Source: an uncultured Candidatus Saccharibacteria bacterium | Lineage (GTDB): Bacteria > Patescibacteriota > Minisyncoccia > Minisyncoccales > CAZKCU01 | Direction: 5' to 3' | Assembly: GCA_964551595.1 (NCBI GenBank) | Contig: CAZKCU010000001.1 | Span: 197,321-261,320 of the forward strand | DNA length: 64,000 bases | In this document: piece by piece, positions 13,124-63,480 of the stretch | Position numbering within the stretch: the first letter of the stretch is position 1 | Layout: each line of letters starts with the position of its first letter | Position numbers and translations under genes: made by a program | Notes under the pieces: model-generated | The model's input: the letters and a program-made list of their open reading frames with translations, nothing else | Told to the model about the DNA's origin: nothing | Databases searched by the model: none

Positions 13124-14371
13124 ATGCAATTCTTCGCTGATTTTCATCTACATTCAAAATATTCAAGAGCAACTTCTCCTCAGATGGATTTGGAAAATCT
13201 TGATAAGTGGGCAAAAATTAAAGGAATAAAAGTTGTTGGGAGTGGAGATTTCACTCACCCAGAGTGGTTTAATAACCTGAAAGAAAAACTTGAGCCCGCA
13301 GAACAGGAACTTTTTAAATTGAAAAATAATGATTCTGAGACCCGTTTCATTTTGACTTCGGAGATTAGTTGTATTTATTCAAAAGGAGGAAGGGTGAGAA
13401 AAATCCATATTTTAATCTTTGCTCCTGATTTCCAAACAGTTGAGAAAATTAATACCCAGCTTGGCTGGATTGGAAATTTAAAATCCGACGGTCGCCCCAT
13501 TTTAGGCCTGGATGCCAAAGAATTAGTAAAAATTGTTTTAAATATTAATTCTAAATGCTTGATTGTCGGCGCTCATTTAATGACCCCATGGTTTTCTTTA
13601 TTTGGTTCAAAATCTGGATTTGATTCAGTTGAAGAATGTTTTGAAGAATATTCAAAATATATCTATGCGGGGGAAACTGGGCTTTCAGCTTCTCCAGAAA
13701 TGCTTTGGCGAATGCCTGATGGCCAAAAGCTTAGTTTAATCTCAAACAGTGATTCACACAGTCCGGCCAAACTGGGCAGAGAGGCAAATGTTTTTGACAC
13801 GGAATTGAGTTATCCGGCAATTGTTGCGGCAATAAAAAGCAAAGACCCTCAAAAATTTTTATACACCATTGAATTTTTTCCCGAAGAGGGCAAATATCAT
13901 TTTGACGGCCACAGGAATTGCAATATAAGTTTAAGTCCGGCTGAAACCAAAAAATACAACGGAATTTGTCCCCGCTGCGGCCGGCCCTTGACCGTTGGAG
14001 TTCTAAACCGAGTTGAACAATTAGCCGACCGGCCCGAGGGATTTAAGCCTCAAGGTGCCATTCCCTACAAAAGTTTGATTCCTTTGGCAGAAATAATTGC
14101 TGAAGTTTTAGGTGTTGGGGTTGGAACAAAAGAAGTAGAAAAACAATACAGGGACCTGATTGAAAAATTCGGTTCAGAATTTAATGTTTTGCTTAACGTT
14201 TCTGTTTCTGATTTGAGGGCAGCAACTTTACCCGAAATTGCAGAAGCCATTTCAAGAGTCCGCGAGGGAAAAGTTAGTGTTGAGCCAGGCTACGATGGAG
14301 TTTATGGGAAAATCAGGATTTTTTCGAAAGGTGAGAAAAAAGACTTATCTCGCCAAGGAACCTTGTTTTAA
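13124..14371 (+). CDS. PHP-domain metallophosphoesterase with C-terminal zinc finger, endonuclease Q-like (TIGR00375-type)
   Basis: FADFHLHSKYSRA PHP motif at N-terminus, GSGDFTHPEW, CPRCGRP zinc-ribbon; 415 aa. Confidence 0.45.
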   Translation: MQFFADFHLHSKYSRATSPQMDLENLDKWAKIKGIKVVGSGDFTHPEWFNNLKEKLEPAEQELFKLKNNDSETRFILTSEISCIYSKGGRVRKIHILIFAPDFQTVEKINTQLGWIGNLKSDGRPILGLDAKELVKIVLNINSKCLIVGAHLMTPWFSLFGSKSGFDSVEECFEEYSKYIYAGETGLSASPEMLWRMPDGQKLSLISNSDSHSPAKLGREANVFDTELSYPAIVAAIKSKDPQKFLYTIEFFPEEGKYHFDGHRNCNISLSPAETKKYNGICPRCGRPLTVGVLNRVEQLADRPEGFKPQGAIPYKSLIPLAEIIAEVLGVGVGTKEVEKQYRDLIEKFGSEFNVLLNVSVSDLRAATLPEIAEAISRVREGKVSVEPGYDGVYGKIRIFSKGEKKDLSRQGTLF

Positions 14372-15208: not shown

Positions 15209-16309
15209 TTAAAAATTTTTGCCTAAAAAGGAAATTGAACTTCCTTTAATTTCAAATTTTCCTTCAATGAATTTTTCAATTACCCAGATGTTAGTTTTAC
15301 AATGGTTGGTAATTTCGGAAACTGTTACTCGGGATTTACCTTGGGCTAAGGCCAAATAAGGAAGAACTTGGTCAGCTAAATGTTTATCTAAACAAGCCTG
15401 GGATTTTTGTTCTTTTAATAATTCCAAAGCTGCTTCTTTGCCTACATCTTCTGCCCTTTTTGATAATTTCCCCAAATTATCAGTTCCAATTATTGTATTT
15501 TCAAATAAGGCTGCTAAGCAAATTTGACTGCCCGGGCATTGAGTATCGTAATATTCAATTTTTTCTTCAGTTGGTAATTTCAATTTTCCTAAAACTTCTC
15601 TTACCCCGGCAACTTGACGTTCCGCCACTTTTTTATTTTTTAAAGCATTTGAAGCTCCAGAAATTACTAAAATCTTTTTTAATTCTCCTCTTTCAGTTAA
15701 ATTAATTGGTTTCAATTTTGATGGGAAAACTTTTACCTCCACTCTTGCTCCACCTTCCGGATAATAACCTCGTTTTAAAACACTGATTTCGACTAACAGA
15801 GAACGGTTCTCTGTTAAATTCATTTTTTCTAAGGTTGGTAAAAAGACATAATGAAAATAATCAATAGTAGGCGAGAAAAAAGTATCAGTTGCTCCGCCAG
15901 TAAAAATAATTTTTATAGGTTGGGAAGCAAATAAAGCAGGCAGAATCAAAGTTTGTAAAACTAAGGTTATGCTTCCAGCAGTAGGAATATTTACAGAAAC
16001 CCGGTCGAGGTTCCTTCTAGGAGGGTGGAGGGGGGGTTGTAGTCTGTAAATTTGGCCTGGATAAAATTTAATTTCTTCACTTCCTAACCTATCACCTTCT
16101 AACCGTCCATTGCAGAGTTGTGCCAAAGCTTGAATGCCTAAAAGATGTTGAATGGACAGGCCTGGTTTCGGCCTCGACTTGCGAATATTAAAAATTCGGC
16201 AGGGTTTTTGAGTTACTGCCGAAAGAGCACCGGCAACTCTAAGTATAGCCCCTGCCCCAGAGCCGTAGGAACCGTCAATTTCAATAAAATTTTGATTTAG
16301 CATAATCAA
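15209..16309 (-). CDS. rtcA: RNA 3'-terminal phosphate cyclase
   Basis: 366 aa; IDGSYGSGAGAILRVAGALS N-terminal motif of RtcA. Confidence 0.8.
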   Translation of the reverse strand: MIMLNQNFIEIDGSYGSGAGAILRVAGALSAVTQKPCRIFNIRKSRPKPGLSIQHLLGIQALAQLCNGRLEGDRLGSEEIKFYPGQIYRLQPPLHPPRRNLDRVSVNIPTAGSITLVLQTLILPALFASQPIKIIFTGGATDTFFSPTIDYFHYVFLPTLEKMNLTENRSLLVEISVLKRGYYPEGGARVEVKVFPSKLKPINLTERGELKKILVISGASNALKNKKVAERQVAGVREVLGKLKLPTEEKIEYYDTQCPGSQICLAALFENTIIGTDNLGKLSKRAEDVGKEAALELLKEQKSQACLDKHLADQVLPYLALAQGKSRVTVSEITNHCKTNIWVIEKFIEGKFEIKGSSISFLGKNF

Positions 16310-29253: not shown

Positions 29254-30897
29254 ATGATTCGTCAAGAAATAGCTAAATTGATAGAGAAGTCAATAAAAAA
29301 ACTCCAAAAAGAGAAGGCTTTGCCTCAATTTGAAATTCCCGAGATTAAGATTGAACATCCGGAGGAGAAAATTCACGGTGATTATGCTACAAACATTGCG
29401 ATGGTAATTGCGAAAATTGTAGAAAAAAATCCCTTAGAGATTGCCAATATTTTAGGTTCTAGTTTAAAGGTTTTAGGTTCTAGTTTATTTGAAAAAGTCA
29501 AAATAGCAAAGCCAGGGTTTATTAATTTTTTTCTTTCAAAAGAATATTTACAACAAAGAATTGGAGAAATTTTAAAGAAGGGAGAGAAATTTGGTGAACT
29601 AAATATTGGTAAAGGAAAGAAGGTTCAGGTAGAATTTATTTCGGCAAATCCAACAGGTCCTTTAACTGTCGGCAATGCTCGGGGTGGTCCTTTTGGTGAT
29701 GTTTTGGGAAATGTTCTGAAAAAAGCGGGATTTAAAGTAGAGAAAGCTTATTATATCAACGATTACGGGATGCAAATTTTGGCTCTCGGACATTCGATTT
29801 TGAAAGATAGCGAAGCGAAATACAAGGGTAAATATATTGATGAACTTGCCAAAAGAATCAAAGAAAAAGAGGCCTATAAGGCAGGTAAGCTCGCAGCCAA
29901 AATTGTTATTGATGAGATGATTAAGAAAACAACCGACAGAATGGGAATTAACTATGACGAGTGGTTTCCAGAAAACACTCTTCACGAGAGTGGCCAAGTT
30001 AATAAAGTTTTGAAGATTTTGGAGCAGACTACAACCCTCCCATCACATCCTCCCGCCAAAGGCGGGCTCCTAAATTTAATTTATCAAAAAGAAGGAGCTC
30101 TGTGGTTTAAATCATCAAGATATGGCGATGAGAGGGATAGAGTCGTAGTCAAAGCGGATGGAGATAAGACTTATTTGGCAGGTGACGTCGCCTATCACCA
30201 CTATAAATTTGAGAAGAAGAAATTTGACAAGGTAATAGACGTTTGGGGAGCTGACCATGCTGGTGATGTAGTAGGTCTTCAGGCAGGAGTGGAAGCCTTA
30301 GGTCACAAAGGAAAACTTGATATTTTATTGCTTCAGTTTGTAACTATACTTGAAAAAGGGGAAAAGCTGAAAATTTCAAAAAGGAGAGGAACTTTTGTTA
30401 CTATGGATGAATTACTTGATGAGGTAGGAGTTGATATTGCTAGATTCTTTTTTCTTCAAAAATCAGCCAATACCCATTTAAATTTCGACCTCGCCCTGGC
30501 TAAAAAGCAGTCAGAGAAAAACCCGGTTTACTACGTACAATATGCTCATGCCAGAATATGTAGTATTTTGCGTAAAGCTGTTGATGTTAAACATCAACAA
30601 GGTTCTTCTCGGCAGGCCTTTAAACTATTAAATCATCCAAATGAACTAGAGCTTATTAAACAGCTGGTTAGGTTTCCAGAAATTATTGAAGATATAGTTA
30701 AAGATTATCAAGTCCAGAGAATTCCCCAATATGCTATGGATTTAGCTACAGTTTTCCACCAGTTTTATCGAGACTGCCACGTGATTACCGAAGATAAAGA
30801 ATTAGCCGGAGCAAGACTATCTTTGGTCTTAGCCACTAAAACCGTATTGAAAAACACTTTAGATTTAATGGGAATTTCTGCCCCTGAAAAAATGTAA
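29254..30897 (+). CDS. argS: arginyl-tRNA synthetase
   Basis: 547 aa; class I catalytic core, DALR anticodon-binding domain at C-terminus. Confidence 0.85.
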   Translation: MIRQEIAKLIEKSIKKLQKEKALPQFEIPEIKIEHPEEKIHGDYATNIAMVIAKIVEKNPLEIANILGSSLKVLGSSLFEKVKIAKPGFINFFLSKEYLQQRIGEILKKGEKFGELNIGKGKKVQVEFISANPTGPLTVGNARGGPFGDVLGNVLKKAGFKVEKAYYINDYGMQILALGHSILKDSEAKYKGKYIDELAKRIKEKEAYKAGKLAAKIVIDEMIKKTTDRMGINYDEWFPENTLHESGQVNKVLKILEQTTTLPSHPPAKGGLLNLIYQKEGALWFKSSRYGDERDRVVVKADGDKTYLAGDVAYHHYKFEKKKFDKVIDVWGADHAGDVVGLQAGVEALGHKGKLDILLLQFVTILEKGEKLKISKRRGTFVTMDELLDEVGVDIARFFFLQKSANTHLNFDLALAKKQSEKNPVYYVQYAHARICSILRKAVDVKHQQGSSRQAFKLLNHPNELELIKQLVRFPEIIEDIVKDYQVQRIPQYAMDLATVFHQFYRDCHVITEDKELAGARLSLVLATKTVLKNTLDLMGISAPEKM

Positions 30898-31466: not shown

Positions 31467-34336
31467 ATTTTTCTAAAATTGAGAAAAAAATCCTAAAATT
31501 TTGGAAAGAGAACAAGATTTTTGAAAAATTACGCCAGAAAAATCAGGGCAAAAAACGCTGGTCATTTTTAGATGGCCCGATTACTGCCAACAATCCTATG
31601 GGAGTTCATCATGCCTGGGGAAGAACCTACAAAGACCTTTTTCAAAGATATAAAGCAATGCAGGGTTTTTGCCAGAGATTTCAAAACGGCTTTGATTGTC
31701 AGGGCTTGTGGGTTGAAGTAGAAGTTGAGAAAGAGCTCGGCTTCCGCAATAAAAAAGATATAGAGAAATACGGCATAGAGAAGTTTGTCAAAAAATGCAA
31801 AGAGAGAGTTGAGAAATATTCGAAAATTCAAACAGAACAGTCAATTAGGCTCGGTCAATGGATGGACTGGCAAAATTCTTATTATACGATGTCTGATGAG
31901 AATAACTATGCTATTTGGCATTTCCTAAAAAAATGCCACAAAGACGGATTTTTATATAAAGGCAGAGATGTAGTTCCATGGTGTCCTCGGTGTGGAACGG
32001 CCATTTCTCAGCATGAAATTTTAACAGAAGAGTATAAAGAATTAACTCACAAATCAATATTTTTCAAGCTACCAGTCCAAAACCTAAAGAAAACTTATTT
32101 TCTTGTCTGGACAACTACTCCCTGGACATTACCTGGTAATGTCGCAATAGCTGTTCATCCTGATTTTGATTATGTAAAAGTAAAAGACAAAAAAGGCAAC
32201 ATTTTTATTTTACTTAAAGAAAAATCTTATTTCATTAAAGATGGAGAAATAATAGAGAAATTTAAGGGCAAGAAATTGAAGGGGTTTAAATACGAAGGGT
32301 TGTTTGACAAATTACCGTTTGTAAAAGAAACCTTAGGTAGCTACAAGCACTCTGTAATTTTGTGGAAGGAGGTAACCCAGGAAGAAGGAACGGGCATTGT
32401 TCATGTGGCGCCCGGCTGTGGTCAAGAGGACTTTCAATTGGCTAAAGAATTTAAACTATCTGTCATTGATTTAACCAATGATGAAAGCAACTATCTAAAG
32501 GGCCTTGGAGAACTGAGTGGCAAGTTTGTTGGCGGAGAAGAAGTAAGAGAATTGATTTTTGAAGATTTAAACCAGAAGGATAGGGTTTTTAAAATTGAGG
32601 ATTACCAACATCGCTATCCAATTTGCTGGCGCTGCCAGTCAGAATTGATTTTCCGTTTGGTTGATGAATGGTATATTTCAATGGCAAAGTTAAGGGAGAA
32701 ACTGATGAAAATTGCCAAAAAAATAAAATGGATTCCTTCCTTTGGTCTGGACAGGGAATTGGATTGGTTAAAAAATATGCAAGATTGGTTAATTTCTAAA
32801 AAACGTTATTGGGGATTAGCTTTACCGATTTATGAATGCCCAGACTGTGGAAACTTTGAGGTAATCGGTTCAAAAAAAGAATTAAAAGAAAAAGCGGTTA
32901 AAGGTTGGCAAGAACTTGAAGGCCATTCTCCTCACCGACCCTGGATAGATAAAGTAAAGATTAAATGTTCCAAATGTGGCAAAATAGTTTCTCGAATTTC
33001 CGATGTTGGTAATCCTTGGCTAGATGCCGGAATTGTGCCTTTTTCTACTATGAAGTATTTTTCTGACCGGGACTTTTGGCAGAAATGGTTTCCGTCTGAA
33101 TTCGTTTGCGAATCTTTCCCGGGTCAATTCAAAAATTGGTTTTATTCCCTTATTGTAATGAGTACTGTATTAGAGGAAGTTGCTCCAGTGAAGACAATCT
33201 TTGGCTACGCAACAGTAGTCGATGAAAAGGGCGAAGAAATGCATAAATCCAAAGGAAATGTTATTTGGTTTGATGAGGCAGTTGAAAAGATAGGGGCTGA
33301 TGTGATGCGTTGGATGTATGTTAAACAAAATCCAGTCTATAATCTAAGGTTTGGCTACAAAATTGCCAAAGAAACCCAAAGAAAACTTTTAACATTATGG
33401 AATAGCTACACCTTTTTTGAGACATATGTCTCAAAAAAGGAAATCCCAAAGCCCAAATCCCAAATCCCAAAACCCAAAAATGTTTTAGATAAATGGATTG
33501 TTTCGCGGCTAAACAGATTAATTGGAGCCGTTATTAAATCTTTAGAAAATTTTGATGCTGCCGGGGCAAGTTCGGCCATTGAGAATTTTTTCATTAATGA
33601 TTTATCTCTTTGGTATATCAGAAGGTCAAGAAAGAGATTTCAGAACCCAAGCAGTCAGAAAGAAAAAGATGAGGCAGTCAGTACTCTTTACTTTGTTCTT
33701 TTAATCCTATCAAAAATGATTGCGCCAATGATGCCGTTCTTTAGTGAAGAAATTTATTTGAATTTAAAAACAAAAAATATGCCTCAATCCGTTCATCTTT
33801 GCGACTGGCCAAAATATTGTGAAAAAGCAATTGACGATAATTTAGAGGAGAAAATGACAAAGGTTCGGGAGATTGTAAATAAGGTTTTAGCTAAAAGAAC
33901 TGAACTTGGAATTAAAGTGAGGCAGCCCTTACGGGGATTAAGAATTGCGAATTATAAATTACGAAGGGAGAAAGAATTACTGGAGTTGATTAAGGACGAG
34001 GTAAATGTAAAAGAAATTACTTTTGGCAAAACATTAAAATTGGATACAAAGATTAGCGAGGAGTTAAAAGAAGAGGGGCAGGTTCGAGAATTTATCCGAC
34101 AGGTTCAGCAACTGCGAAAAAATGCCAAACTTACCCCCAAAGACAAAATTATTATTTATTGTGAGTGCCCAGAGAAATTGAAAAAAGTTTTAGAAAAAAA
34201 TAAAAAAGACATTTTAGCAGAAACCAAAGCCAAAGATTTTCTTTTTGGTAAAAAACCAAAGAAAGTTTTCGACACTGAAAAAGATTTAAAGGTCGACCAA
34301 ACAAAATTATGGTTAGCAATCAACCGAAGCACATAA
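31457..34336 (+). CDS. ileS: isoleucyl-tRNA synthetase
   Basis: 959 aa; HMGH-type and KMSKS motifs, CP1 editing domain, zinc-binding C-terminus; contains in-frame palindrome+short tandem repeat at 33414-33480. Confidence 0.9.
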   Translation: MSIDFSKIEKKILKFWKENKIFEKLRQKNQGKKRWSFLDGPITANNPMGVHHAWGRTYKDLFQRYKAMQGFCQRFQNGFDCQGLWVEVEVEKELGFRNKKDIEKYGIEKFVKKCKERVEKYSKIQTEQSIRLGQWMDWQNSYYTMSDENNYAIWHFLKKCHKDGFLYKGRDVVPWCPRCGTAISQHEILTEEYKELTHKSIFFKLPVQNLKKTYFLVWTTTPWTLPGNVAIAVHPDFDYVKVKDKKGNIFILLKEKSYFIKDGEIIEKFKGKKLKGFKYEGLFDKLPFVKETLGSYKHSVILWKEVTQEEGTGIVHVAPGCGQEDFQLAKEFKLSVIDLTNDESNYLKGLGELSGKFVGGEEVRELIFEDLNQKDRVFKIEDYQHRYPICWRCQSELIFRLVDEWYISMAKLREKLMKIAKKIKWIPSFGLDRELDWLKNMQDWLISKKRYWGLALPIYECPDCGNFEVIGSKKELKEKAVKGWQELEGHSPHRPWIDKVKIKCSKCGKIVSRISDVGNPWLDAGIVPFSTMKYFSDRDFWQKWFPSEFVCESFPGQFKNWFYSLIVMSTVLEEVAPVKTIFGYATVVDEKGEEMHKSKGNVIWFDEAVEKIGADVMRWMYVKQNPVYNLRFGYKIAKETQRKLLTLWNSYTFFETYVSKKEIPKPKSQIPKPKNVLDKWIVSRLNRLIGAVIKSLENFDAAGASSAIENFFINDLSLWYIRRSRKRFQNPSSQKEKDEAVSTLYFVLLILSKMIAPMMPFFSEEIYLNLKTKNMPQSVHLCDWPKYCEKAIDDNLEEKMTKVREIVNKVLAKRTELGIKVRQPLRGLRIANYKLRREKELLELIKDEVNVKEITFGKTLKLDTKISEELKEEGQVREFIRQVQQLRKNAKLTPKDKIIIYCECPEKLKKVLEKNKKDILAETKAKDFLFGKKPKKVFDTEKDLKVDQTKLWLAINRST

Positions 34337-34345
34337 TCTTGTTAT

Positions 34346-34738
34346 GTGCTCGGTAAAAATATGGCAATTTTTGATATTAAAAAAATTTTTGGTGGAGGGA
34401 TAAAAGAAAGACCAGAAAAGAAGATAGAAAAAGCCCCTGTCCCCATTAAAGAGGCGAAGAAAGATACTTCAATATTCGGAGGGAAGTCTTATATGCGTCG
34501 GAGCAGTTTTATGTATCGATTAACAAACCCCGAGCTTTATAGAAACACCAGTTTGGGAGAAAAAGACAGGACCAGATTAGGAGAAAAGCTTTTCGGCCAC
34601 GGCAGTTCTGTAAAGAAAAAAGACGTGGAGAAGGCAGAAAGACAATTAGATTTGGGGGAATGGGGCGAATTTAAAGGTTTATCCCATGAAGATAAAGAGA
34701 AAGCAAAAAGGTTGACAAAGGGAATTCTGGGGAAATAA
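34346..34738 (+). CDS. hypothetical protein (130 aa, charged)
   Basis: ORF only; no recognisable motif. Confidence 0.3.
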   Translation: MLGKNMAIFDIKKIFGGGIKERPEKKIEKAPVPIKEAKKDTSIFGGKSYMRRSSFMYRLTNPELYRNTSLGEKDRTRLGEKLFGHGSSVKKKDVEKAERQLDLGEWGEFKGLSHEDKEKAKRLTKGILGK

Positions 34739-37235: not shown

Positions 37236-37272
37236 ATTAAAAATTCATTTCACCTTTTATCGTCTGTCGGTA

Positions 37273-37299
37273 TTTGATACCGACAGACAGATACGACAG
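37273..37299. repeat. palindromic element copy P1 (gtctgtcggtatttgataccgacagac), intergenic
   Basis: perfect 12-bp arms; two further copies at 48781-48807 and 60767-60791 inside CDSs. Confidence 0.8.
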
Positions 37300-45534: not shown

Positions 45535-48051
45535 ATGAAATATAATCCCCAAAAAATAGAACGAAAATGGCAAATATTTTGGGAGAAAATAGGAATTTTT
45601 GAAGCGAAAGATTTTTCTAAAAAGGCAAAGAGCTATATTTTAGTTGAGTTTCCTTATCCATCTGGCGAAGGGCTTCATGTTGGGCATTGCCGACCTTATA
45701 TTGCCTTGGATATAGTCAGCCGCAAAAGAAGAATGGAGGGTTTTAATGTTTTGTTTCCTATGGGCTGGGATGCTTTTGGATTGCCGACCGAAAACTATGC
45801 TATTAAAACCGGGATTTATCCCCGAGAAGCTACCAGGAAAAACATCTCTTTTTTTAAGGATCAGCAAAAAAGTATAGGTCTGTCTTTTGATTGGAGCCGC
45901 GAAATTAACACTACTGATCCGGCCTACTATAAATGGACTCAATGGATATTTTTGCAGCTTTTTAAAAAAGGCTTAGCTTATAAAAGCAAAATGCCAATTA
46001 ACTGGTGCCCGGCTTGTAAAATTGGCCTGGCTAATGAGGAAGTGGTTGATGGAAAATGCGAAAGATGCGGGGAAAAAGTTGAGAGAAGAGAAAAAGAACA
46101 GTGGATGCTGAAAATAACTAGGTATGCTGAAAGACTAATTCAGGATTTAGACAAAGTTGATTACCCGGAGAAAGTTAAGATTCTCCAGAAAGATTGGATA
46201 GGGAAATCAGAAGGCTGGGAAATAACTTTTAAGATTAAAGATTCAAGTTCAAAGATTCAAGTATTCACTACTCGGGCAGACACTCTTTTTGGAGCTACTT
46301 ATTTGGTGGTAGCTCCTGAGCATCCAATAATTCAAAATCTGAAATCTAAAATCCTAAATCTTAAATCTGTAGAGAAATATATTGAAGAATCCAAGAAAAA
46401 GATTGAGAGAGAAAGAATTAGTGAAATTAAAGAGAAAACTGGAATAGAAGTTAAAGGAATAAAAGCAGTCAACCCGGTCAAGTTGAGACAAATCCCCATT
46501 TTTTTAGCAGATTATGTTTTGATGCACTATGGCACCGGGGCAATTATGGCTGTGCCAACTCACGACCAAAGAGATTTTGATTTCGCCAGACAATATAATT
46601 TACCGATGATTGAGGTGATTAAACCTTTTAAAGAAAAAAAAGAATTACCAAAAGAAGTCGGAATAGTGGTTTCCAACGGTAGATTTAAAAAAGCTTATGA
46701 AGGTGAAGGATATTTGATTAATTCTGGAAGATTTAATGGAATAGGCTCAGAAATTGCCAAAGAAAGAATTGGTGAGTGGTTAGCAAGAAAAAGTTTAGCA
46801 AAAAAAACCGTCCATTATAAATTAAGAGATTGGATTTTTTCTCGGCAACGTTATTGGGGAGAGCCAATTCCAATGATAAAGTGTGAGAGATGTGGTTGGT
46901 TGGCAGTTTCAGAAAAAGATTTACCGGTTAAACTTCCTCGAGTTAAAAAATATCAACCGACTGAAACTGGCGAATCCCCATTGGCAGCGGTTAAAAATTG
47001 GGTAAATGTCAAATGCCCTAAATGCGGCGGTCCTGCCAGAAGAGAAACCGATGTTATGCCAAACTGGGCTGGTTCTAATTGGTATTTTCTTCGCTATTGT
47101 GATCCCCAAAATGATAAAAAATTAGCCAATCCAAAATTACTTAAATATTGGATGCCAGTAGGCTGGTATAATGGAGGCATGGAGCATACTACTTTGCATC
47201 TTTTGTATTCTCGTTTTATCTATAAATTTTTATGGGACATTGGGGCTGTGCCAAAATCTGTTGGCTCTGAACCATATAAGAAACGAACTTCTCATGGTAT
47301 GGTTCTTGGCGAGGGAGGAATTAAAATGTCAAAATCCAAAGGTAATGTCATTAACCCCGATAATGTTGTTAAAAGTTACGGAGCTGACACAATGAGAGTT
47401 TATGAAATGTTTATGGGACCTTTTGAGCAAATGATTTCCTGGGACAGCAAAGGAGTAAGGGGAGTAAGGAGATTTCTGGGAAAAGTTTGGGAACTTTTTG
47501 AAAAATCCCAAATCCCAAATCCTAAATCCCAATCAAATCCCAAATCTCAATTTCCAAATCCAAAACTTAAAAAACTTTTACATAAGACTATTAAGAAAGT
47601 ATCAGAGGATATTGAACATTTAAAGTTTAACACAGCGGTAAGCTCTTTAATGAAATTTTGTAATGCTTGGCAAGAAAATGTTCAGGGGCTGAAGAGAGAA
47701 GATTTTAAAAATTTCCTAAAGATTTTTTCTCCTTTTGCTCCTCATATGGCAGAAGAACTTTGGCGAAAATTAAAACCTAAAAAAGACCTTAAAGATTATG
47801 AGAAAAGAGATTCAATTTTCTCTCAGCCCTGGCCCAAATATGACTCAAAATTAATTGAAGAGGAAAAAATAACTTTAGTTATTCAGGTCAATGGTAAAGT
47901 TCGTGATAGAATAGAAGTAATGGCAGATATAAAAGAAGAAAAGGCCAGAGAGTTAGCTTTGGCCCAAGAAAAAATCAAAAAATGGATAGGAGGAAAAAAG
48001 ATAAAAAGAGTTATTTTTGTTCCCGGGAAACTTATAAATATAGTAATATAA
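45535..48051 (+). CDS. leuS: leucyl-tRNA synthetase
   Basis: 838 aa; HVGH and KMSKS motifs, CP1 editing domain; two in-frame short tandem repeat insertions (46334-46378, 47503-47570). Confidence 0.9.
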   Translation: MKYNPQKIERKWQIFWEKIGIFEAKDFSKKAKSYILVEFPYPSGEGLHVGHCRPYIALDIVSRKRRMEGFNVLFPMGWDAFGLPTENYAIKTGIYPREATRKNISFFKDQQKSIGLSFDWSREINTTDPAYYKWTQWIFLQLFKKGLAYKSKMPINWCPACKIGLANEEVVDGKCERCGEKVERREKEQWMLKITRYAERLIQDLDKVDYPEKVKILQKDWIGKSEGWEITFKIKDSSSKIQVFTTRADTLFGATYLVVAPEHPIIQNLKSKILNLKSVEKYIEESKKKIERERISEIKEKTGIEVKGIKAVNPVKLRQIPIFLADYVLMHYGTGAIMAVPTHDQRDFDFARQYNLPMIEVIKPFKEKKELPKEVGIVVSNGRFKKAYEGEGYLINSGRFNGIGSEIAKERIGEWLARKSLAKKTVHYKLRDWIFSRQRYWGEPIPMIKCERCGWLAVSEKDLPVKLPRVKKYQPTETGESPLAAVKNWVNVKCPKCGGPARRETDVMPNWAGSNWYFLRYCDPQNDKKLANPKLLKYWMPVGWYNGGMEHTTLHLLYSRFIYKFLWDIGAVPKSVGSEPYKKRTSHGMVLGEGGIKMSKSKGNVINPDNVVKSYGADTMRVYEMFMGPFEQMISWDSKGVRGVRRFLGKVWELFEKSQIPNPKSQSNPKSQFPNPKLKKLLHKTIKKVSEDIEHLKFNTAVSSLMKFCNAWQENVQGLKREDFKNFLKIFSPFAPHMAEELWRKLKPKKDLKDYEKRDSIFSQPWPKYDSKLIEEEKITLVIQVNGKVRDRIEVMADIKEEKARELALAQEKIKKWIGGKKIKRVIFVPGKLINIVI

Positions 48052-48060
48052 TTAAAAAAA

Positions 48061-49700
48061 TGGAGGAGATTTTATTACAAAAAGCTGGCAAAAAAATGAT
48101 ACTTTTGGGTAACGAAGCCATTTGTCGGGGTGCTTTGGAAGCAGGAGTTCAATTTGTTTCTACTTATCCTGGAACCCCGGCTTCAGAAATTGGAAATACC
48201 TTTTTTAAACTTTCTCAATCAGGAAAATATAAAGGTTATTTTGAGTTTTCTACCAATGAAAAAGTAGCTTTGGAAGCAGGAATTGGAGCTTCTTTTTCTG
48301 GTTTGAAAACTTTGGTGGCAATGAAAAACTTTGGCTTAAATGTCTGTTCAGATTCTTTACTTCCATTTTTATATACTGGTGCAAAAGGTCCGACTGTAAT
48401 TGTTGCTGCCGATGACCCTTCCTGCCACAGTTCAGCTCAATCTGAAGAAAATAGCCGAGCTTTTGCTTTTTTAGCCCATATCCCCGTTTTAGAACCTTCA
48501 GATCCTCAGGAATGCAAAGATTTTGTTAAGTTAGGTTTCAAAATTTCAGAAAAATTTCAAATTCCAGTAATGATAAGAACTACAACAAGAGTTGCTCACC
48601 AGCGAGCAATAGTAAAATTGGGAAAGATTACGAAACCCGGCAACGTAGTGGGAAAGTTTATTAAAGAGCCAAAGAGATTTGTTACCATGCCCCCGAGAGT
48701 ATTGGAGATGAAAAAAGAGCTGCTTAAAAAAATCAAACAAATCAGAAAATTTTCCGAAAAAACCCAAATAAATAAGATAAGTCTGTCAGTATCAGATACC
48801 GACAGACAGAAAATAGGAATAATTAGTTCAGGGGTTACCCATTTATATGTAATGGAGGCAGTAAAGGAACTAAAATTAAATTTGCCAGTTTTGAAGCTGG
48901 GATTTTTTTATCCTTTGCCAAAAGAGAAAATAAAGAATTTTATTAAAAATTTTAAAAAAGTTCTGATTGTTGAAGAATTAGAGCCGTATTTAGAAAGAGA
49001 AATAGAAAGATTAGCAAAAGATGTCAATCCGAAACTTCAAATTTTCGGCAAAGGTCTGGTTCCCGAAGTTGGCGAACTAAAACCCGAAATCGTTACCTTG
49101 GCCATCGTCAAGTTTGCTAATTGTAAATTGAAAATTGAAAATTGGAAATTCCAAATTCCAAAACGTTCTCCTCAGCTTTGTCCAGGTTGTCCTTATTGGT
49201 TAGTTTTTGGGGCAGTTAAAAAAGCAGTAGATCCCAAAAAGGTAATTTTTGGGGGAGACATTGGTTGTTATATGTTAGCAGGTCTCCCTCCTCACTTTAT
49301 CCAAGATTATCTCTCTTGTATGGGGTCATCTATAGGAATTGCCCACGGGATTAAAAAAGCGACTGGCCAAAAATTAATTACTTTTATTGGTGACTCAACT
49401 TTTTTTCATGCTGGTATCCCAGCTTTGATTAATACGGTTTTTAATAAATCCAATCCTTTAATTATCGTAATGAACAACCAAACCACTGCTATGACCGGAC
49501 ATCAGCCTCATCCCGGGGCGCCAGCCAAACCAGATGGAATAAAGATTGAAAATATTGTCAAAGCTTGCGGTGTAAAGAATTTAAAAGTAATTGACCCTAT
49601 CAAACAAAAAGAGTTTATTAATACAGTTAAAAAATTTTTAAATAAAAAAGAGGTTTCAGTAATTATAGCTCGTCGTCCATGCATCCAGATAAAAAAATGA
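48061..49700 (+). CDS. iorA: indolepyruvate/2-oxoacid:ferredoxin oxidoreductase alpha subunit (TPP-binding)
   Basis: GNEAICRGALEAG N-terminus, TPP motif GGDIGCYMLAG; start set to ATG 48061 rather than 47982, which overlaps leuS; carries palindromic element P2 in frame. Confidence 0.7.
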
Positions 49701-56714: not shown

Positions 56715-57260
56715 ATGATAGATGAGTTAATTGATATTTGTGATGAAAACAATAATTTACTTGGAATCCAAAGGGCGTGGAGTGAGGTACATAAAAACGG
56801 GCTATGGCACAGGGCTTCACATATTTGGATATACAATTCCAAAGGAGAAATTCTTCTTCAATTAAGAGCTAAAGGCAAAGAACTTTATCCTGATATGTGG
56901 GATATTTCGGCAGCAGGCCAAGTTAAGGCCGGCGAAGAGCCAATTATTTCTGGATTAAGAGAAGTTGAGGAAGAAATTGGACTATCAGTCAAAGAAAGGG
57001 ATTTAGAATTTTTTAAGGTCAAGAAACACAAATCAATTTTCAGAGATATAAAGGACAATGAATTTTGTTATGTTTACTTTTTAAAATTCGATGGCGATAT
57101 TAAAAAATTAAAATTACAAGATGAGGAAGTTCAATCAGTCCAATTTCTTCCTCTTGAGAAAATTGAAGAAGAATTAAAAACAAATCCCGAAAAATATGTG
57201 CCTCACGGAGATTATTGGTTTGAAGTAATAAATAAAGTTAAACAAAAACTAAATCTTTAA
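56715..57260 (+). CDS. NUDIX hydrolase
   Basis: Nudix box GEEPIISGLREVEEEIGL. Confidence 0.7.
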   Translation: MIDELIDICDENNNLLGIQRAWSEVHKNGLWHRASHIWIYNSKGEILLQLRAKGKELYPDMWDISAAGQVKAGEEPIISGLREVEEEIGLSVKERDLEFFKVKKHKSIFRDIKDNEFCYVYFLKFDGDIKKLKLQDEEVQSVQFLPLEKIEEELKTNPEKYVPHGDYWFEVINKVKQKLNL

Positions 57261-57287
57261 CAAAAGCCCTGGGAAGCCTTCCCGGAG

Positions 57288-57908
57288 GTGCTATTTTTTA
57301 TGATACAAATCAAAGAATGTAAAGAGCCATTAGTTGATATAAAAAAATTATGTCCTGATATAATAATTGATTTAGGCACAAAAAGGATGCAAAGAGAAAA
57401 AACTGCCTACCTGAGAAAGAAGGTGGCCGAAATGATTTGTCGAGCCGAGAAAGAACTGCCGGAGGGAACAACATTTATTATCGGAGACGCTTGGAGGCCA
57501 AAATATATTCAAAAGGAAAGAATCAATTGGTTTATTAATTATTTTTCTAAAAAGTACCCAAATTGGTCTAAGAAGAAAATTCTTAATGAGGTTGAAAAAT
57601 ATGTTGCTTTATCTGAAGGAAAATATGCTTCCGGACATATGACCGGTGGAGCAGTAGATTTGAGATTATGGAAAAATGGTAGAAAAATACCTATGAAATG
57701 TTCTAAATTAACTTACCAAGAAAACGCCAAATCATTTCAGCCTAAGTTACCAAGACATATTCAAAAAAACAGAGAGATAATGTTTAACGCACTAAAAAAA
57801 GCTGGTTTATCCAACTATCCAAAAGAGTATTGGCATTGGTCATATGGTGATATCTGGTGGGCCAAAAGGAACAAAGAAAAAATTGCCATTTATGGAGTGA
57901 TAAATTAA
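57288..57908 (+). CDS. D-alanyl-D-alanine dipeptidase (VanX/DdpX, M15D family)
   Basis: zinc-ligand motifs SGHMTGGAVDL and EYWHWSYGD. Confidence 0.65.
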   Translation: MLFFMIQIKECKEPLVDIKKLCPDIIIDLGTKRMQREKTAYLRKKVAEMICRAEKELPEGTTFIIGDAWRPKYIQKERINWFINYFSKKYPNWSKKKILNEVEKYVALSEGKYASGHMTGGAVDLRLWKNGRKIPMKCSKLTYQENAKSFQPKLPRHIQKNREIMFNALKKAGLSNYPKEYWHWSYGDIWWAKRNKEKIAIYGVIN

Positions 57909-58002
57909 ATTGGGAAGCCATCTCGAAAGTACTGTTGATTTTTTTAAGTAAAACCCGCCCAAGTATTATCCGAGCGGGTTATTGTCTATGGTGACGTTCT
58001 AA

Positions 58003-58374
58003 TTATGAGACTTTAAGGCCCTCAACTTTTGCAGGGTCGAGTTTGCTACCATTTGGTGGAAACAGAATTAATAATTCACCGCTGGTAAAAGAGCAAAGGC
58101 TGAGCCGGTCATTACCGATTTCTGAAACGCCATAAAGTTTCAGATTTCTTACATAGCCATCAGAGGCAAATTTATCTTCCTTTTTCCAGTTAATCCACCA
58201 TGGCCATAACCGATAACGTTTTCCTTTCGCTATCCATGCAAACTTGACCAGAAACATATTATTCTCAATGGTAGCACTCTTAATCGGGCCTCGATATAGA
58301 TAACCTTCGTTTTTATTCTGAATTTCCATATCTCCCTCCACAAATTCTGCAACTTTTTCATTGGTAAGGTTCAT
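58003..58374 (-). CDS. hypothetical protein (123 aa)
   Basis: ORF only; followed on the minus strand by hairpin aacccgc...gcgggtttt at 57945-57975. Confidence 0.35.
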   Translation of the reverse strand: MNLTNEKVAEFVEGDMEIQNKNEGYLYRGPIKSATIENNMFLVKFAWIAKGKRYRLWPWWINWKKEDKFASDGYVRNLKLYGVSEIGNDRLSLCSFTSGELLILFPPNGSKLDPAKVEGLKVS

Positions 58375-58416
58375 AACTACCTCCTTTCTTTGTTATAGTG
58401 TTTCCAAATTCTTATG

Positions 58417-58500
58417 TGCCGGAGGTGGGACTTGAACCCACAAGCCCTTGCGGACAGTAGATTTTGAATCTACCCTGTTTTCCAATTTCAGCACTCCGGC
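58417..58500 (-). tRNA. tRNA-Leu (anticodon CAA), class II with long variable arm; CCA not encoded
   Basis: minus-strand read GCCGGAG...GGTAGA-TTCAAAA-TCTAC...GTCCGCAAGGGCTTGT...GTGGGTTCAAGTCCCAC-CTCCGGC-A; 7-bp acceptor, T-loop GGTTCAAGTCC. Confidence 0.8.
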
Positions 58501-58515
58501 AAGTACTTTATTCTT

Positions 58516-60594
58516 TTATTTCACCATATTTTTCTCGAAATTGCAATCTTTGTCGGAACACTTAATTTTCCTCCCTTTTTCTACCAAAAGTGAGCCGCAT
58601 TTTGGGCATTTTTTTCCTGTTGGTTTGTCCCATAAGGCAAAATCACATTTTGGCCACTGATTGCAGCCATAAAAGATTTTTTTCTTTTTAGTTCTTTTTT
58701 CAACCACCTCGCCTTTTTTACATTTAGGGCATTTAATTCCTAATTTTATTTTTTCAAAAGATTCAGTGTATTTACATTTAGGAAAGCGAGAGCAGCCATA
58801 GAATTTTCCGAATTTCCCCAGCCGAATTAAAAGTGGAGCTTTGCATTTTGGACAGATTTTTTCGGTTTTCTCAGTTAAAACCTTTTTTGAAACCTCCTGA
58901 TATTTTTGTTTCAGGTTTTCTTCAAAAGGATTGTAAAACTCTCTTATAACCGGAACCCATTTTTCTTTCCCTTGGGCAATTTTATCTAAATCTTCTTCCA
59001 TTAGGGCGGTAAATTTAATATCAACAATTTTTGGGAAGTGCTTTACCAGGATATCGTTTACTACTGTCCCAATTTCAGTTGGTTGAAAGCGCTTCTCTGT
59101 ATTTTTCTCAATATAATTTCTTTCTTGAACTGTAGATAAAATGGGGGCATAAGTTGATGGCCTACCAATTCCATTTTCTTCCAGGGTCTTAATTAAAGTA
59201 GCTTCACTGTACCGAGGAGGAGGTTGAGTAAAGTGCTGGGAGGGAATTAATTTTATTAGTTCCAAGATTTCATTTATTTCCAAAGACGGCAACTCGGTTT
59301 CCTCGAATTTCATCGGGTAAACTTTCAAAAATCCATCAAATTTCAGAATCTGCCCCGTTGTTCTTAAAATATAACTTTTAACTTTTAATTTTTGATTTTT
59401 AACTTTTGATTCGATATCGACTTTAGACGAATCGAAGCTCGCCTTTGCCATCTGACAAGCTATAAATCGCCGCCAAATTAAATCGTAAAGACGAAACTGC
59501 CTGTCGTCTAATTTAGCTTGAATTTTTAATTTCTCTGGAGCTTTCTCAGCAAAAGTAGGCCTTATGGCTTCATGAGCTTCCTGGGCCCCCTTGGTTTTTG
59601 TTTTATATCTTCTCAAAAAACCAGCCCAATATTCCTTGCCATAATTCTCAATGATAAATTTTCTGGTAGCAAATAAAGATTGGTCAGAAAGATTTAAGGA
59701 ATCGGTTCTGTGATAGGTCGTAAGTCCTTTCTCATAAAGTTGCTGGGCAACTTGCATTGTCATTTTAGCTGGCCAATGGAATCTCCCCCAGGATTCTTGT
59801 TGGAGAGTGCTGGTGGTAAATGGTGGTAGAGGATTTCTTTTTACTTCTTTCTTTTCGATATTGATTACTTTGTATTCAGTTTTTTCTAAATCTTTAACAA
59901 TTTTATCTGCTTCTTTTTTAGTTTTAATTCCCAGCTTGGGAATTGTTTTTTTATCCCTTTTAATTAAAATAGCTTCAAACAGAGGCTCGTCCTCTGTTTT
60001 TTTTAGTTGGGCGGCGATTGTCCAGTATTCTTGGGGTACAAAATTTTTAATTTCTCTTTCTCTTTCTACAACCAGACGAACTGCTACTGACTGAACTCTT
60101 CCAGCTGACAGGCGTCGAGCCACTTTTTTCCACAAAAAAGGGGATAATTTATAACCAACAATTCTATCCAAAATTCTTCTTGTTTGCTGGGCATAGACCA
60201 GATTTAAATCAATTTTCCTTGGGTTTTTGAGAGCTTCCTCAATTGCTGATTTTGTAATCTCATGAAAGACAATTCTTTGGTAAGGTTTTTTGCCATTTAG
60301 ATTTAAAATCTTGGTCAAATGCCAAGATATTGCTTCTCCTTCTCTATCCTCGTCAGTGGCTAAAATAACTGTTTTTGTTTTTTCCGCTTCTTTTTTTAAA
60401 ATATTTACATTTCTTCTGGCTTTAGGAGGAATAATATATTTTGGTTCGAAATTGTTTTCTACATCAACGCCAAATTCAGCCTTAGGCAAATCTCTGATGT
60501 GACCATAGGAAGAAAGAACCCGATATTTAGGGCCTAAAAATCCTTGAAGCGTTTTTGATTTCGTCGGTGACTCAACTACTACGATTAATTGCAT
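58516..60594 (-). CDS. topA: DNA topoisomerase I
   Basis: 692 aa; Toprim [15 protein letters not shown], active-site Tyr region, three C-terminal C4 zinc ribbons; contains in-frame repeat 59374-59413. Confidence 0.9.
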
Positions 60595-61445
60595 AAATAT
60601 TTCTTCCTAAATTTCCTACTTTACCTTTTATTTCCAAAATAGCAAGAGTGCCGGCAACCTCTGTCGCTGATAATTTTGTTTTCTCAATAATTTTATCAAT
60701 ATATAATGCCTCTTCTCTTAAAACTTCCAAAATCAAATTTTCTTCTTCATTTTCACCCCTTACTGTTCTGTCGGTATTTGATACCGACAGACTTAGATTG
60801 AGCTCCTTTAGAATGTCGTTGGCGTTTTCAACTAATTTAGCTCCCTGTTTGATTAGATAATGGGGTCCTTTTGAATTTAAAGAGTGAACCGGGCCAGGAA
60901 CGGCAAAAATTTTTCTTATTTTTTTTGGCCCAGTTTGCCGTGATTAAAGCTCCTGATTTTTGTTTAGCTTCCACAAGTAAAACTCCAAAAGAAAGACCAG
61001 AGATTATCCGATTTCTCTGGGGAAAAGTGAATTTTGACCCAGGAGTTCCCGAAGGATATTCGGAAATTAAACACCCTCCGGTTTCTAAAATCCTTTGAGA
61101 TAATTTTAAATTCGACTGGGGATAAATACTTTTTTCATCAAGCCCGGTACCTAAAACAGTAATCGTTCTTTTGTTTCTTTCAACTGTTGCCGTATGAGCG
61201 AAAGTATCAATTCCTGGTGCTAATCCTGAAACAATAATTAATCCTGCTTCAGCTAAATCTCCAGCAATTTCCAAAGCTACCTGTTTCCCGTAAGGAGAGC
61301 ACATTCTGGTTCCAACTACGGCAAAACATTGCTCATTAGGATTGAGTCTTCCCCTAACATAAAGAATCTCCGGCGCATCCTTAATTTCTTTCAAAAGTTT
61401 CGGATAACTTTTATCTTTAATAGTTATGGTTTTAATCTCGTCCAT
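60572..61445 (-). pseudogene. dprA: DNA processing protein DprA interrupted by a frameshift in an A8/T8 homopolymer (60919-60926); possibly a sequencing error
   Basis: in-frame ORF 60837..61445 has the Rossmann domain up to ALITAN; shifting one nt at the A8 run restores [30 protein letters not shown] plus the C-terminal winged-helix domain, ending 60572 and overlapping topA start; carries palindromic element P3. Confidence 0.7.
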
Positions 61446-63417: not shown

Positions 63418-63480
63418 CCCCGTAGTAGAATTTGACAGGATTTTTCTTTTAGAAAAATCCTGTCAAATTCTACTACGGGG
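63418..63480. repeat. near-perfect ~30-bp-arm inverted repeat (ccccgtagtagaatttgacaggatttttct / agaaaaatcctgtcaaattctactacgggg) upstream of mfd
   Basis: read directly; 3-nt loop; contains ttgaca in each arm. Confidence 0.8.

Follow-up and report, generated by a model that had tools for sequence, protein, structure and literature searches.

REP-RAYT systems consist of dispersed stem-loops of 20-40 nt and of a gene for a Y1 HUH enzyme that is flanked by its own repeat, an arrangement termed 'REPtron'; each enzyme lineage possesses its own repeat family, and several families may occur in one genome (PMC5581495, PMC6006769, PMC3733652). Intergenic REP copies are located close to the 3′ ends of genes (PMC3733652). 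Intragenic REPs of the GTAG/CGTC type are known from Opitutus terrae, Thauera and, as RPE-4 and RPE-6, from R. conorii. They reside wholly within ORFs and are translated, frequently as part of proteins for replication or repair, UvrA among them (Di Nocera et al. 2013, PMC3733652).

Two further kinds of elements share some of these properties. In the IS200/IS605 family the whole IS is the repeated unit. It is bounded by two different imperfect hairpin ends with guide and cleavage-site tetranucleotides, and its TnpA protein comprises about 130-150 aa. Rickettsia palindromic elements (RPEs) have a size of about 100-150 bp; to our knowledge, they are restricted to Rickettsia and no transposase has been identified for them. 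RPE-1 and its relatives, the elements of Ogata and co-workers, reportedly lie in frame in unrelated protein genes, where they are tolerated as a surface or linker peptide.

Here, we report on a short palindrome in a stretch of 64,000 nt (the window) and its occurrence on other contigs. It probably is a REP-like hairpin repeat of a RAYT-like Y1 (HUH) tyrosine transposase family in Patescibacteria, the hosts being assigned by source labels to Nealsonbacteria, Pacebacteria and Parcubacteria-type genomes.

Results

Copies of the palindrome in the window

A preliminary description of the window had noted a palindromic element in three copies. All three are real (Table 1): two contain the exact 23-mer CTGTCGGTATTTGATACCGACAG (37264-37286 and 60768-60790), while the remaining one contains the variant CTGTCAGTATCAGATACCGACAG (48783-48805), which differs in the loop and by a single arm mismatch, G>A at the CpG. 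The arrangement gtCTGTCGGTAT-TTG-ATACCGACAGac is present in the intergenic copy at 37262-37288 and on the minus strand of dprA at 60767-60791. In 100 dinucleotide-preserving shuffles of the window, no match to the 23-mer with up to three mismatches was obtained. The positions reported previously were correct for the copies in iorA and dprA, but about 10 nt too far to the right for copy 1, as the interval 37273-37299 comprises the right arm of this copy together with an adjoining partial half-site. Partial extra half-sites also adjoin many palindrome copies on other contigs. Copy 1 resides 27 nt downstream of the stop codon of a gene for a 567-aa protein (end at 37235) and 27 nt upstream of the glyQS start codon (ATG at 37315).

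Table 1. Positions of the palindrome copies and their host genes in the window, and palindromes accompanying Y1 transposase genes on other contigs
Feature	Position	Strand	Sequence	Remarks
Copy 1	37262..37288		GTCTGTCGGTAT-TTG-ATACCGACAGAC	27-nt perfect palindrome, 12-nt arms with gt/ac extension
Partial half-site ('stutter')	37291..37299		ATACGACAG	adjoins copy 1
Copy 2	48781..48807	+	GTCTGTCAGTATCAGATACCGACAGAC	one arm mismatch at CpG; in frame in iorA, SLSVSDTDR
Copy 3	60767..60791	-		25-nt perfect palindrome, 11-nt arms; in dprA, (S)LSVSNTDR
iorA	48060..49700	+		indolepyruvate ferredoxin oxidoreductase alpha; POR_N and TPP_enzyme_C
dprA	60572..61445	-		interrupted by a deficit of 2 nt within an A-rich run (near 60925-60940)
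L092 palindrome			TGTCGGAGTC-N-GACTCCGACA	Y1 gene picked by protein similarity
L093 palindrome			TGTTGAAACC-A-GGTTTCAACA	Y1 gene picked by protein similarity
L094a palindrome			CTGTTGACATC-N-GATGTCAACAG	Y1 gene picked by protein similarity
L094b palindrome			TGTCCGAGAAG-C-CATCTCGGACA	downstream copy not detected
L095 palindrome			TGGCGGTATC-N-GATACCGCCA	Y1 gene picked by protein similarity

Folding as single-stranded DNA gave -14.1, -7.2 and -10.8 kcal/mol for copies 1, 2 and 3, respectively (z = -8.8, -6.6 and -8.6). A scan of the window allowing up to seven arm mismatches did not disclose a fourth family member; the only other matches, at 10105 and 30578, are at chance level (mean of 8.6 matches per shuffle). 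At 10105-10114, a lone exact half-site CTGTCGGTAT, whose partner arm is absent, lies within a minus-strand gene and may be a relic or a chance occurrence. The sequence at 30578-30600 is a perfect palindrome, CTGTTGATGTTaAACATCAACA, of a family that related contigs share; on its outside it has TGTTG/CAACA, the signature of the transposase-linked palindromes. Rfam searches of the whole window at gathering thresholds matched only one tmRNA and one tRNA and nothing at the palindromes, and a terminator and promoter scan around copy 1 gave no match at the palindrome. ARAGORN additionally called a 'tRNA-???' with a 4-base anticodon at 13997-14074 on the minus strand, within a plus-strand ORF. This call is probably a false positive, since Rfam did not confirm it.

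The loci L048, L074 and L038, considered as glyQS-upstream orthologues of copy 1, were ruled out by blastn, which showed no synteny with the window. Copy 1 therefore is without an orthologue among the loci examined.

Occurrence of the palindrome on other contigs

Outside the window, five copies of the exact 23-mer were found in CAYSLI01, a MAG of 488 kb with the deposit label 'Saccharibacteria', and a second MAG contained one. Allowing a free 3-nt centre, the palindrome was detected on 82 metagenome-contig stretches, and the viral contigs searched for it contained no copy. Perfect-armed copies numbered 104 in 88 loci, nearly all of them on contigs with 30-42% GC; after removal of identical duplicates, 81 instances remained, which represent about 61 distinct sites. 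Since the centre of the 104 copies was C-N-G in 70 and CAA/TTG in 30 cases, the element can be described as an 11+1+11 dyad. In variants with one mismatch, nearly all mismatches affected the CpG of the arm. The flank profile of the 61 sites disclosed only a G at -2 (79/122) and a T at -1 (77/122), both of which lengthen the stem, and it lacked a GTAG or CGTC tetranucleotide at the foot of the hairpin. No target-site duplication was recognized at these sites and flank conservation stopped at the gt/ac stem extension, which fits single-strand Y1 chemistry.

Forty-eight of the 61 sites are intergenic and 13 are intragenic. About half of the intergenic copies lie no more than 30 nt from the 3′ end of a gene, many of the copies 2-20 nt past a stop codon, and many directly 3′ of genes or tRNAs; a consistent position relative to promoters was not observed. 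In two loci (L041 and L066), the palindrome supplies the stop codon of the flanking gene. The density of the element is low, with three copies in the 64 kb of the window and two to three perfect copies per contig of 70-180 kb; the estimate is roughly one per 20-90 kb. The lone 10-nt half-site was not enriched outside the palindromes. Copies within one genome share sequence identity and not structure-preserving covariation.

Sites bound by homodimers are typically perfect dyads like the present one (11+1+11, central base free). The palindrome might thus be a protein-binding site (operator, parS-like or nucleoid-related) or a DNA-uptake sequence selected for a host function, and its strong conservation at orthologous sites of relatives with 80-90% nucleotide identity, as well as the copy in the transformation gene dprA, about 170 nt upstream of topA, would agree with such a role. 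However, uptake sequences occur about once per kb, the copies are not consistently positioned relative to promoters, many of them follow stop codons at the short distances given above, unrelated palindromes take the place of the sequence at the same site in sister lineages, and the sequence co-varies with the transposase gene that it brackets (see below). We therefore regard a binding or uptake site as very improbable. Among the individual candidates, parS, LexA-type operators and dif were dropped because of the copy number, the missing promoter relation and the co-variation with the transposase, and a DNA uptake sequence (DUS/USS; 9-12-nt core, over-represented irrespective of the strand) because of the density and the lack of half-site enrichment.

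Reading frame of the genic copies

The copy in IorA reads NKISLSVSDTDRQKIG, and the copies in IorA and DprA give SLSVS(D/N)TDR in one and the same frame, as the preliminary description had stated. It had also recognized that the DprA peptide is only obtained after frameshift correction: translation passes a separate 2-nt deficit in an A-rich run. In comparison with seven relatives, dprA is 2 nt short at 60925-60940, by which it is divided into parts of 202 aa and 113 codons, and the downstream frame is open. The frameshift is either that of a recent pseudogene or a homopolymer assembly error and is unrelated to the palindrome.

On all contigs, the copies residing deep within long ORFs read LSVS(D/N)TDR, the free central base being the third base of its codon. 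Such copies were found in IorA, DprA, the CCA-adding enzyme, an MBL-fold protein, UvrA (between the interaction and DNA-binding domains), a DeoR-HTH protein (in the C-terminal tail) and a Y1 transposase of about 250 aa. All three frames of the CAG- and CAA-loop variants are open, and under equal use of frames the occurrence of one common frame in seven independent genes has a probability of p ~1e-3. Copies with the asymmetric CAA/TTG centre always read S-N and never F-D. The same codon register was also shared by the three genic copies of another palindrome family, that of L094 (see below). Across families the rule is not universal, as the IorA protein of L090 and the DprA protein of L098 use different registers for the TCTATCGATTT palindrome.

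Exchange of palindromes at the IorA and DprA sites

Structure-based alignments placed both genic sites of the window in inter-domain linkers, which agrees with the loop position that had been predicted for them. The IorA site immediately precedes the first strand of domain II, while the DprA site follows the Rossmann domain, at which the structure 3UQZ ends, and lies before the C-terminal winged helix, as seen in 3MAJ.

Among 120 IorA homologues, which are 72-100% identical to the window protein, the linker between FSEKS.IN and G(II.SG) differs in its sequence and, to some degree, in its length, and only five of them contain SLSVSDTDR. In the DNA of three other homologues, different palindromes occupy exactly this position, namely TTGACAGAGGTC-g-GACCTCTGTCAA in L089, where a second copy is present in folD, and ATCTATCGATTT-acg-AAATCAATAGAT in L090. 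L091 carries the palindrome of L090 with a nested 48-nt insertion that holds another hairpin. This insertion, located at L091:10700-10790 (complete genome CP179888.1), is in frame, contains the hairpin GAAGAAGAT-tt-ATCTTCTTC and interrupts the left arm of the resident palindrome; GAAGA-type hairpins are a further multi-copy family in these genomes. In a neighbour-joining tree of IorA, from which the linker was left out, carriers of SLSVSDTDR were interleaved with carriers of other palindromes.

The situation in DprA is similar. The 120 homologues studied (75-91% identity) possess a hypervariable linker of 10-13 residues after NDILKELNL, which in approximately 15 of them includes LSVS[DN]TD[RK]. 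The linker SLLKPGFNK of other homologues corresponds to the palindrome family of L093, and NLSISEINR to TCTATCGATTTC-C-GAAATCAATAGA of L098, a family also found in the IorA linker of L090 and L091. The DprA linker of L091 is not palindromic.

Relatives with 80-90% nucleotide identity carry the palindrome at orthologous sites, and for this reason we consider the window copies as vertically inherited. The peptide had been proposed to be an insertion relative to orthologues. This is true only in a loose sense: SLSVSDTDR is confined to a subset of the homologues, while the linker itself is always there, has a similar length and is occupied by other palindromes in sister lineages. The occurrence of the same residues in related taxa had been named as an argument against an insertion. 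Close relatives indeed share these residues, because an old copy was inherited vertically and not because the element is absent. The genic copies are old occupants of permissive linkers, whose occupant changes between lineages, and the conservation of the sites across relatives shows that the window's own copies have not moved recently.

Since hairpins are stable and many intergenic copies directly follow genes or tRNAs, the selected object might instead be an RNA hairpin (terminator, mRNA stabiliser, processing or pausing signal), the identity within a genome being a by-product. The retention of palindromes of some kind at the same linker positions of IorA and DprA in many lineages, and the about 50-fold enrichment of GC-containing perfect palindromes in the window (10 against 0.2 expected), could be explained in this way. 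On the other hand, the stem is not followed by a T-run, the sense strand of the iorA copy contains an A.C mismatch, the non-palindromic DprA linker of L091 would be an exception, and the copies of one genome are alike in sequence instead of showing structure-preserving covariation. An RNA hairpin as the primary function is accordingly quite improbable, while such a function may well be a secondary, exapted role of the intergenic copies.

A Y1 transposase gene bracketed by the palindrome

Seven loci, for whose retrieval the palindrome was the sole criterion, encode a protein of about 250 aa matching the Pfam family Y1_Tnp ('Transposase IS200 like') with 36.4 bits (cut-off 23). The RayT equivalog model NF047646 of NCBIfam gave 22.3 bits and its cut-off of 80 was not reached. 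Y144 (in FQGxYK) and the second His of NHFH, the HUH-type motif, are invariant among 60 aligned homologues, and the first His of this motif is nearly so. PDB sequence searches with the single sequence and with a 60-sequence profile yielded no meaningful match. A fold search with the AlphaFold model (mean pLDDT 71.5) retrieved the TnpA proteins of IS608, ISDra2 and IS200 and the REP-associated tyrosine transposase of E. coli (4ER8) as best PDB matches (top entries 2A6M, 2XQC, 2VJV and 4ER8), at probabilities of 0.99-1.0 and E-values of only ~1e-2 (4ER8: probability 0.99, TM 0.40/0.56). The protein family comprises 1937 matches in 90% clusters and, among 50% representatives, 11,581 at E ≤1e-3 and 70 at ≤1e-30. 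The best 120 of the 1937 matches were labelled 'transposase' and originated from MAGs of Nealsonbacteria, Parcubacteria and Pacebacteria.

All seven genes have one palindrome copy 9-22 nt upstream of the ATG and another one 0-26 nt downstream of the stop codon, and six of them contain a further in-frame copy at residues 54-62. The enzyme of L023 is 85% identical to that of L087; in its gene, all three positions are occupied by another palindrome, TGGTTGATATC-N-GATATCAACCA. About 40 nt past the 3′ palindrome of the transposase gene, L087, L024 and L023 share the conserved sequence ttttccacaggttgtggtttacaaacagag, which contains a small hairpin and may be part of the transposase unit. In the protein alignment, a hypervariable loop between FFNDSHSS.NILR and ESVFE.GWP.NWPEK resembles translated palindromes (LSVSDTDR, LSESDSDR, LKPGFNQ, LTSDVNR, LSHLRCDR and others). 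In more distant Y1 relatives with up to 50% identity, the equivalent loop lacked a peptide of this palindrome-like kind.

For an independent test, the DNA of four proteins picked by protein similarity alone was inspected, with the prediction that each gene has its own palindrome inside and on both sides. The DNA contained five genes, each of which possessed an upstream and an in-frame copy (residues 52-61) of its own, different palindrome; a downstream copy was present for four of them (Table 1). Taking both sets together, the cognate palindrome was present upstream of 12 of 12 Y1_Tnp genes and downstream of 11. At least seven palindromes were seen for different enzyme lineages, and one contig (L094) harbors two enzymes with two palindromes. 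Further copies of the respective palindrome were found nearby on L094 and L095, both genic and intergenic; the extra genic copies of L094 reside in genes for a DeoR-HTH protein, sigma-70 and a glycosyltransferase. Enzyme and hairpin thus co-vary. At L094:9942-10769, a transposase gene with its flanking palindromes is located between the sigma-70 and DUF5667 genes, whereas the same intergenic spot of L095 (17665-17717) holds only a 53-nt doublet of the L095 palindrome, the transposase gene being elsewhere. Loss or movement of the gene might have left this difference as a footprint.

By tblastn, no Y1 transposase gene was detected in the 64-kb window, and none of the closest Y1 homologues listed is located on the 282-kb parent contig of the window or on contigs of the CAYSLI01 MAG. 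The window copies therefore may be orphans; alternatively, the Y1 gene may reside on an unbinned short contig.

With a Y1_Tnp protein at hand whose top fold matches include the TnpA of IS608 and ISDra2, the palindromes might be ends of an autonomous IS200/IS605-type element, the solo copies being left-over ends or PATE-like derivatives and not a REP population with a domesticated, single-copy RAYT. Many homologues sit on contigs of ~1 kb, as is the case with repeated ISs, L094 has two Y1 genes, and between sigma70 and DUF5667 it has the gene where L095 has the doublet alone. Several properties are at variance with this interpretation. Both ends are the same perfect palindrome, where an IS would have distinct imperfect hairpins as LE and RE, the protein of ~250 aa has an extra C-terminal domain compared to the ~130-150 aa of the IS200 TnpA, solo palindromes are far more numerous than genes, and the two genes of L094 have different palindromes. 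Identical duplicates of the whole unit were not seen in the DNA examined. We judge an autonomous IS to be unlikely.

The preliminary description had compared the element to RPEs, which insert into ORFs and are tolerated as surface loops. As an element of this type, it would be a selfish orphan palindrome without a dedicated enzyme. In-frame copies in unrelated genes, a single peptide and the linker positions are indeed reminiscent of these elements. This assignment could not be upheld, since the palindrome measures 23-27 nt instead of 100-150 bp, is devoid of a CGTC tag, occurs in a phylum other than that of Rickettsia and brackets the gene of a partner enzyme, the RAYT-like Y1 transposase (upstream in 12/12, downstream in 11/12). 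An RPE-type insertion is thus very unlikely. The more general notion of a multi-copy palindromic element of the mobile-element type was supported.

Other repeats in the window

The window contains ten perfect palindromes whose arms measure 10 nt or more and whose GC content is 0.3 or higher, compared to 0.2 expected. Several short perfect palindromes have relatives on other contigs: the palindrome TAACAGAGAACgGTTCTCTGTTA at 15794-15816 belongs to a family shared with related contigs (seven copies among the loci), AAACAGAGG..CCTCTGTTT at 59977-59999 in topA has five orthologous copies, and the family of AGCACATAA..TTATGTGCT at 34328-34350 has eight copies in related contigs. By far the longest inverted repeat of the window is a perfect palindrome of 63 nt at 63418-63480 (CCCCGTAGTAGAATTTGACAGGATTTTTCT...; 30-nt arms, 3-nt loop), just upstream of the likely start of mfd. 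A 30-nt perfect palindrome without a loop, CCTTTTTTGAGACAT/ATGTCTCAAAAAAGG, lies at 33411-33440 within an ORF of 980 aa.

Within leuS (47503-47565), a 7-nt tandem repeat, (AAATCCC)n with about nine copies, is translated in frame as QIPNPKSQSNPKSQFPNPK in LeuRS. In other lineages, the IorA linker is filled with similar direct repeats of the 'IQNPK' type (P0068, P0071), and tandem repeats of the leuS type represent another class of short repeats that coding sequences tolerate. The cumulative GC skew peaks at ~57000-58500, where plus-strand and minus-strand genes converge; this pattern is terminus-like or simply an effect of the transcription direction.

Discussion

The palindrome resembles the REP/REPIN-RAYT systems of E. 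coli, Pseudomonas and Stenotrophomonas in being a short stem-loop repeat that flanks the Y1 gene belonging to it. The repeat is specific to the enzyme lineage, several families can be present in one genome, intergenic copies lie close to the 3′ ends of genes and target duplications are lacking. Differences exist as well. The palindrome is perfect, lacks the GTAG/CGTC foot and occurs in low copy number, the units are mostly single and not REPIN doublets, and the enzyme is only distantly related (22 bits against 80 with the RayT model). Moreover, the enzyme genes of these Patescibacteria hosts carry their own repeat in frame within the ORF (6/7 and 5/5). Extragenic location, a feature expected of REPs, does not apply throughout, as one third of the window copies are extragenic and two thirds genic, and 13 of the 61 sites are intragenic. 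The absence of a Y1 gene from the window, the low copy number, the missing GTAG/CGTC hallmark of classical REPs, the RayT score, the lack of PDB matches by sequence, the weak E-value of the fold search with a model of mean pLDDT 71.5, and the site conservation across relatives are points against our interpretation as a REP-like repeat, which we nevertheless consider probable.

With the intragenic GTAG/CGTC REPs, the element shares UvrA as a host, to which DprA, the CCA-adding enzyme and IorA are added here, and some copies provide a stop codon. It differs from them by belonging to another sequence superfamily and another phylum, by its strict single frame, and by genic sites that are conserved across many lineages and in which the palindrome family is exchanged in place. 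RPEs are comparable in that both element types are in frame within functional, unrelated ORFs; unlike RPEs, the element has a length of 23-27 nt and a partner enzyme, and its hosts are Patescibacteria according to source labels and homologues. IS200/IS605 elements such as IS608 and ISDra2 have the same enzyme fold and presumably the same single-strand, hairpin-guided chemistry. In contrast to them, identical perfect palindromes form the ends, solo palindromes dominate and the protein comprises ~250 aa.

Judging from the known chemistry of the family, which is our basis for hairpin formation in vivo, catalysis and actual mobilisation, the 23-27-nt palindrome would fold on single-stranded DNA, e.g., on the lagging-strand template, into a hairpin of 11-13 bp. 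The cognate Y1 enzyme of ~250 aa would read the sequence of the hairpin, cut at its foot by means of the catalytic tyrosine and rejoin the DNA, so that over evolutionary time hairpins might be copied or exchanged between sites. Copies would persist where they are harmless, that is in short spacers at gene ends and, only in the LSVS(D/N)TDR frame, in flexible inter-domain linkers. The three copies of the window would be non-autonomous members of this hairpin population. Copies may persist within essential genes as translated linkers because intergenic space is so scarce in streamlined genomes.

A more far-reaching reading, which we put forward tentatively and consider rather doubtful, is that Patescibacteria possess a distinct and hitherto undescribed REP-RAYT branch, in which the transposase ORF permanently carries its own in-frame hairpin and the enzyme swaps hairpins at fixed permissive sites, namely the linkers of IorA, DprA, sigma-70 and UvrA in essential genes. 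The internal copy of the transposase ORF, co-evolving with the two flanking copies, could be an autoregulatory element or a 'master copy'. If this reading is true, orthologous linkers would record the RAYT lineage active in each genome and would offer natural evidence for the replacement of one REP by another, a poorly understood step of REP dissemination.

REP-RAYT systems and intragenic REPs, even in uvrA, have already been described (PMC3733652). What appears to be new is the host phylum, the perfect palindrome without a tag, the in-frame copy within the transposase gene, the single-frame rule and the way in which palindrome families replace one another at constant codon positions in conserved genes. 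The preliminary description had regarded the behaviour of the element as undocumented for this type of genome, and within the limited literature searched we found neither a published description nor any report on RAYT or REP in Patescibacteria, CPR or Parcubacteria; full-text searches with either 10-mer arm gave unrelated primer matches only.

REP/RAYT systems are the best candidates for 'domesticated' transposases, and the spread and role of REPs are unclear. Studies of these systems have dealt nearly exclusively with Proteobacteria. The palindrome would be a compact, perfectly palindromic version of REP in streamlined genomes of the candidate phyla radiation. The elements explain the hypervariable linkers of nine to thirteen residues in CPR proteins that are otherwise 75-90% identical, and it is likely that they break metagenome assemblies around the transposase gene, because many transposase genes sit on contigs of ~1 kb. 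The single frame, the copy within the transposase gene and the replacement of families at the same codons of IorA and DprA could show how Y1 enzymes choose and replace their hairpins.
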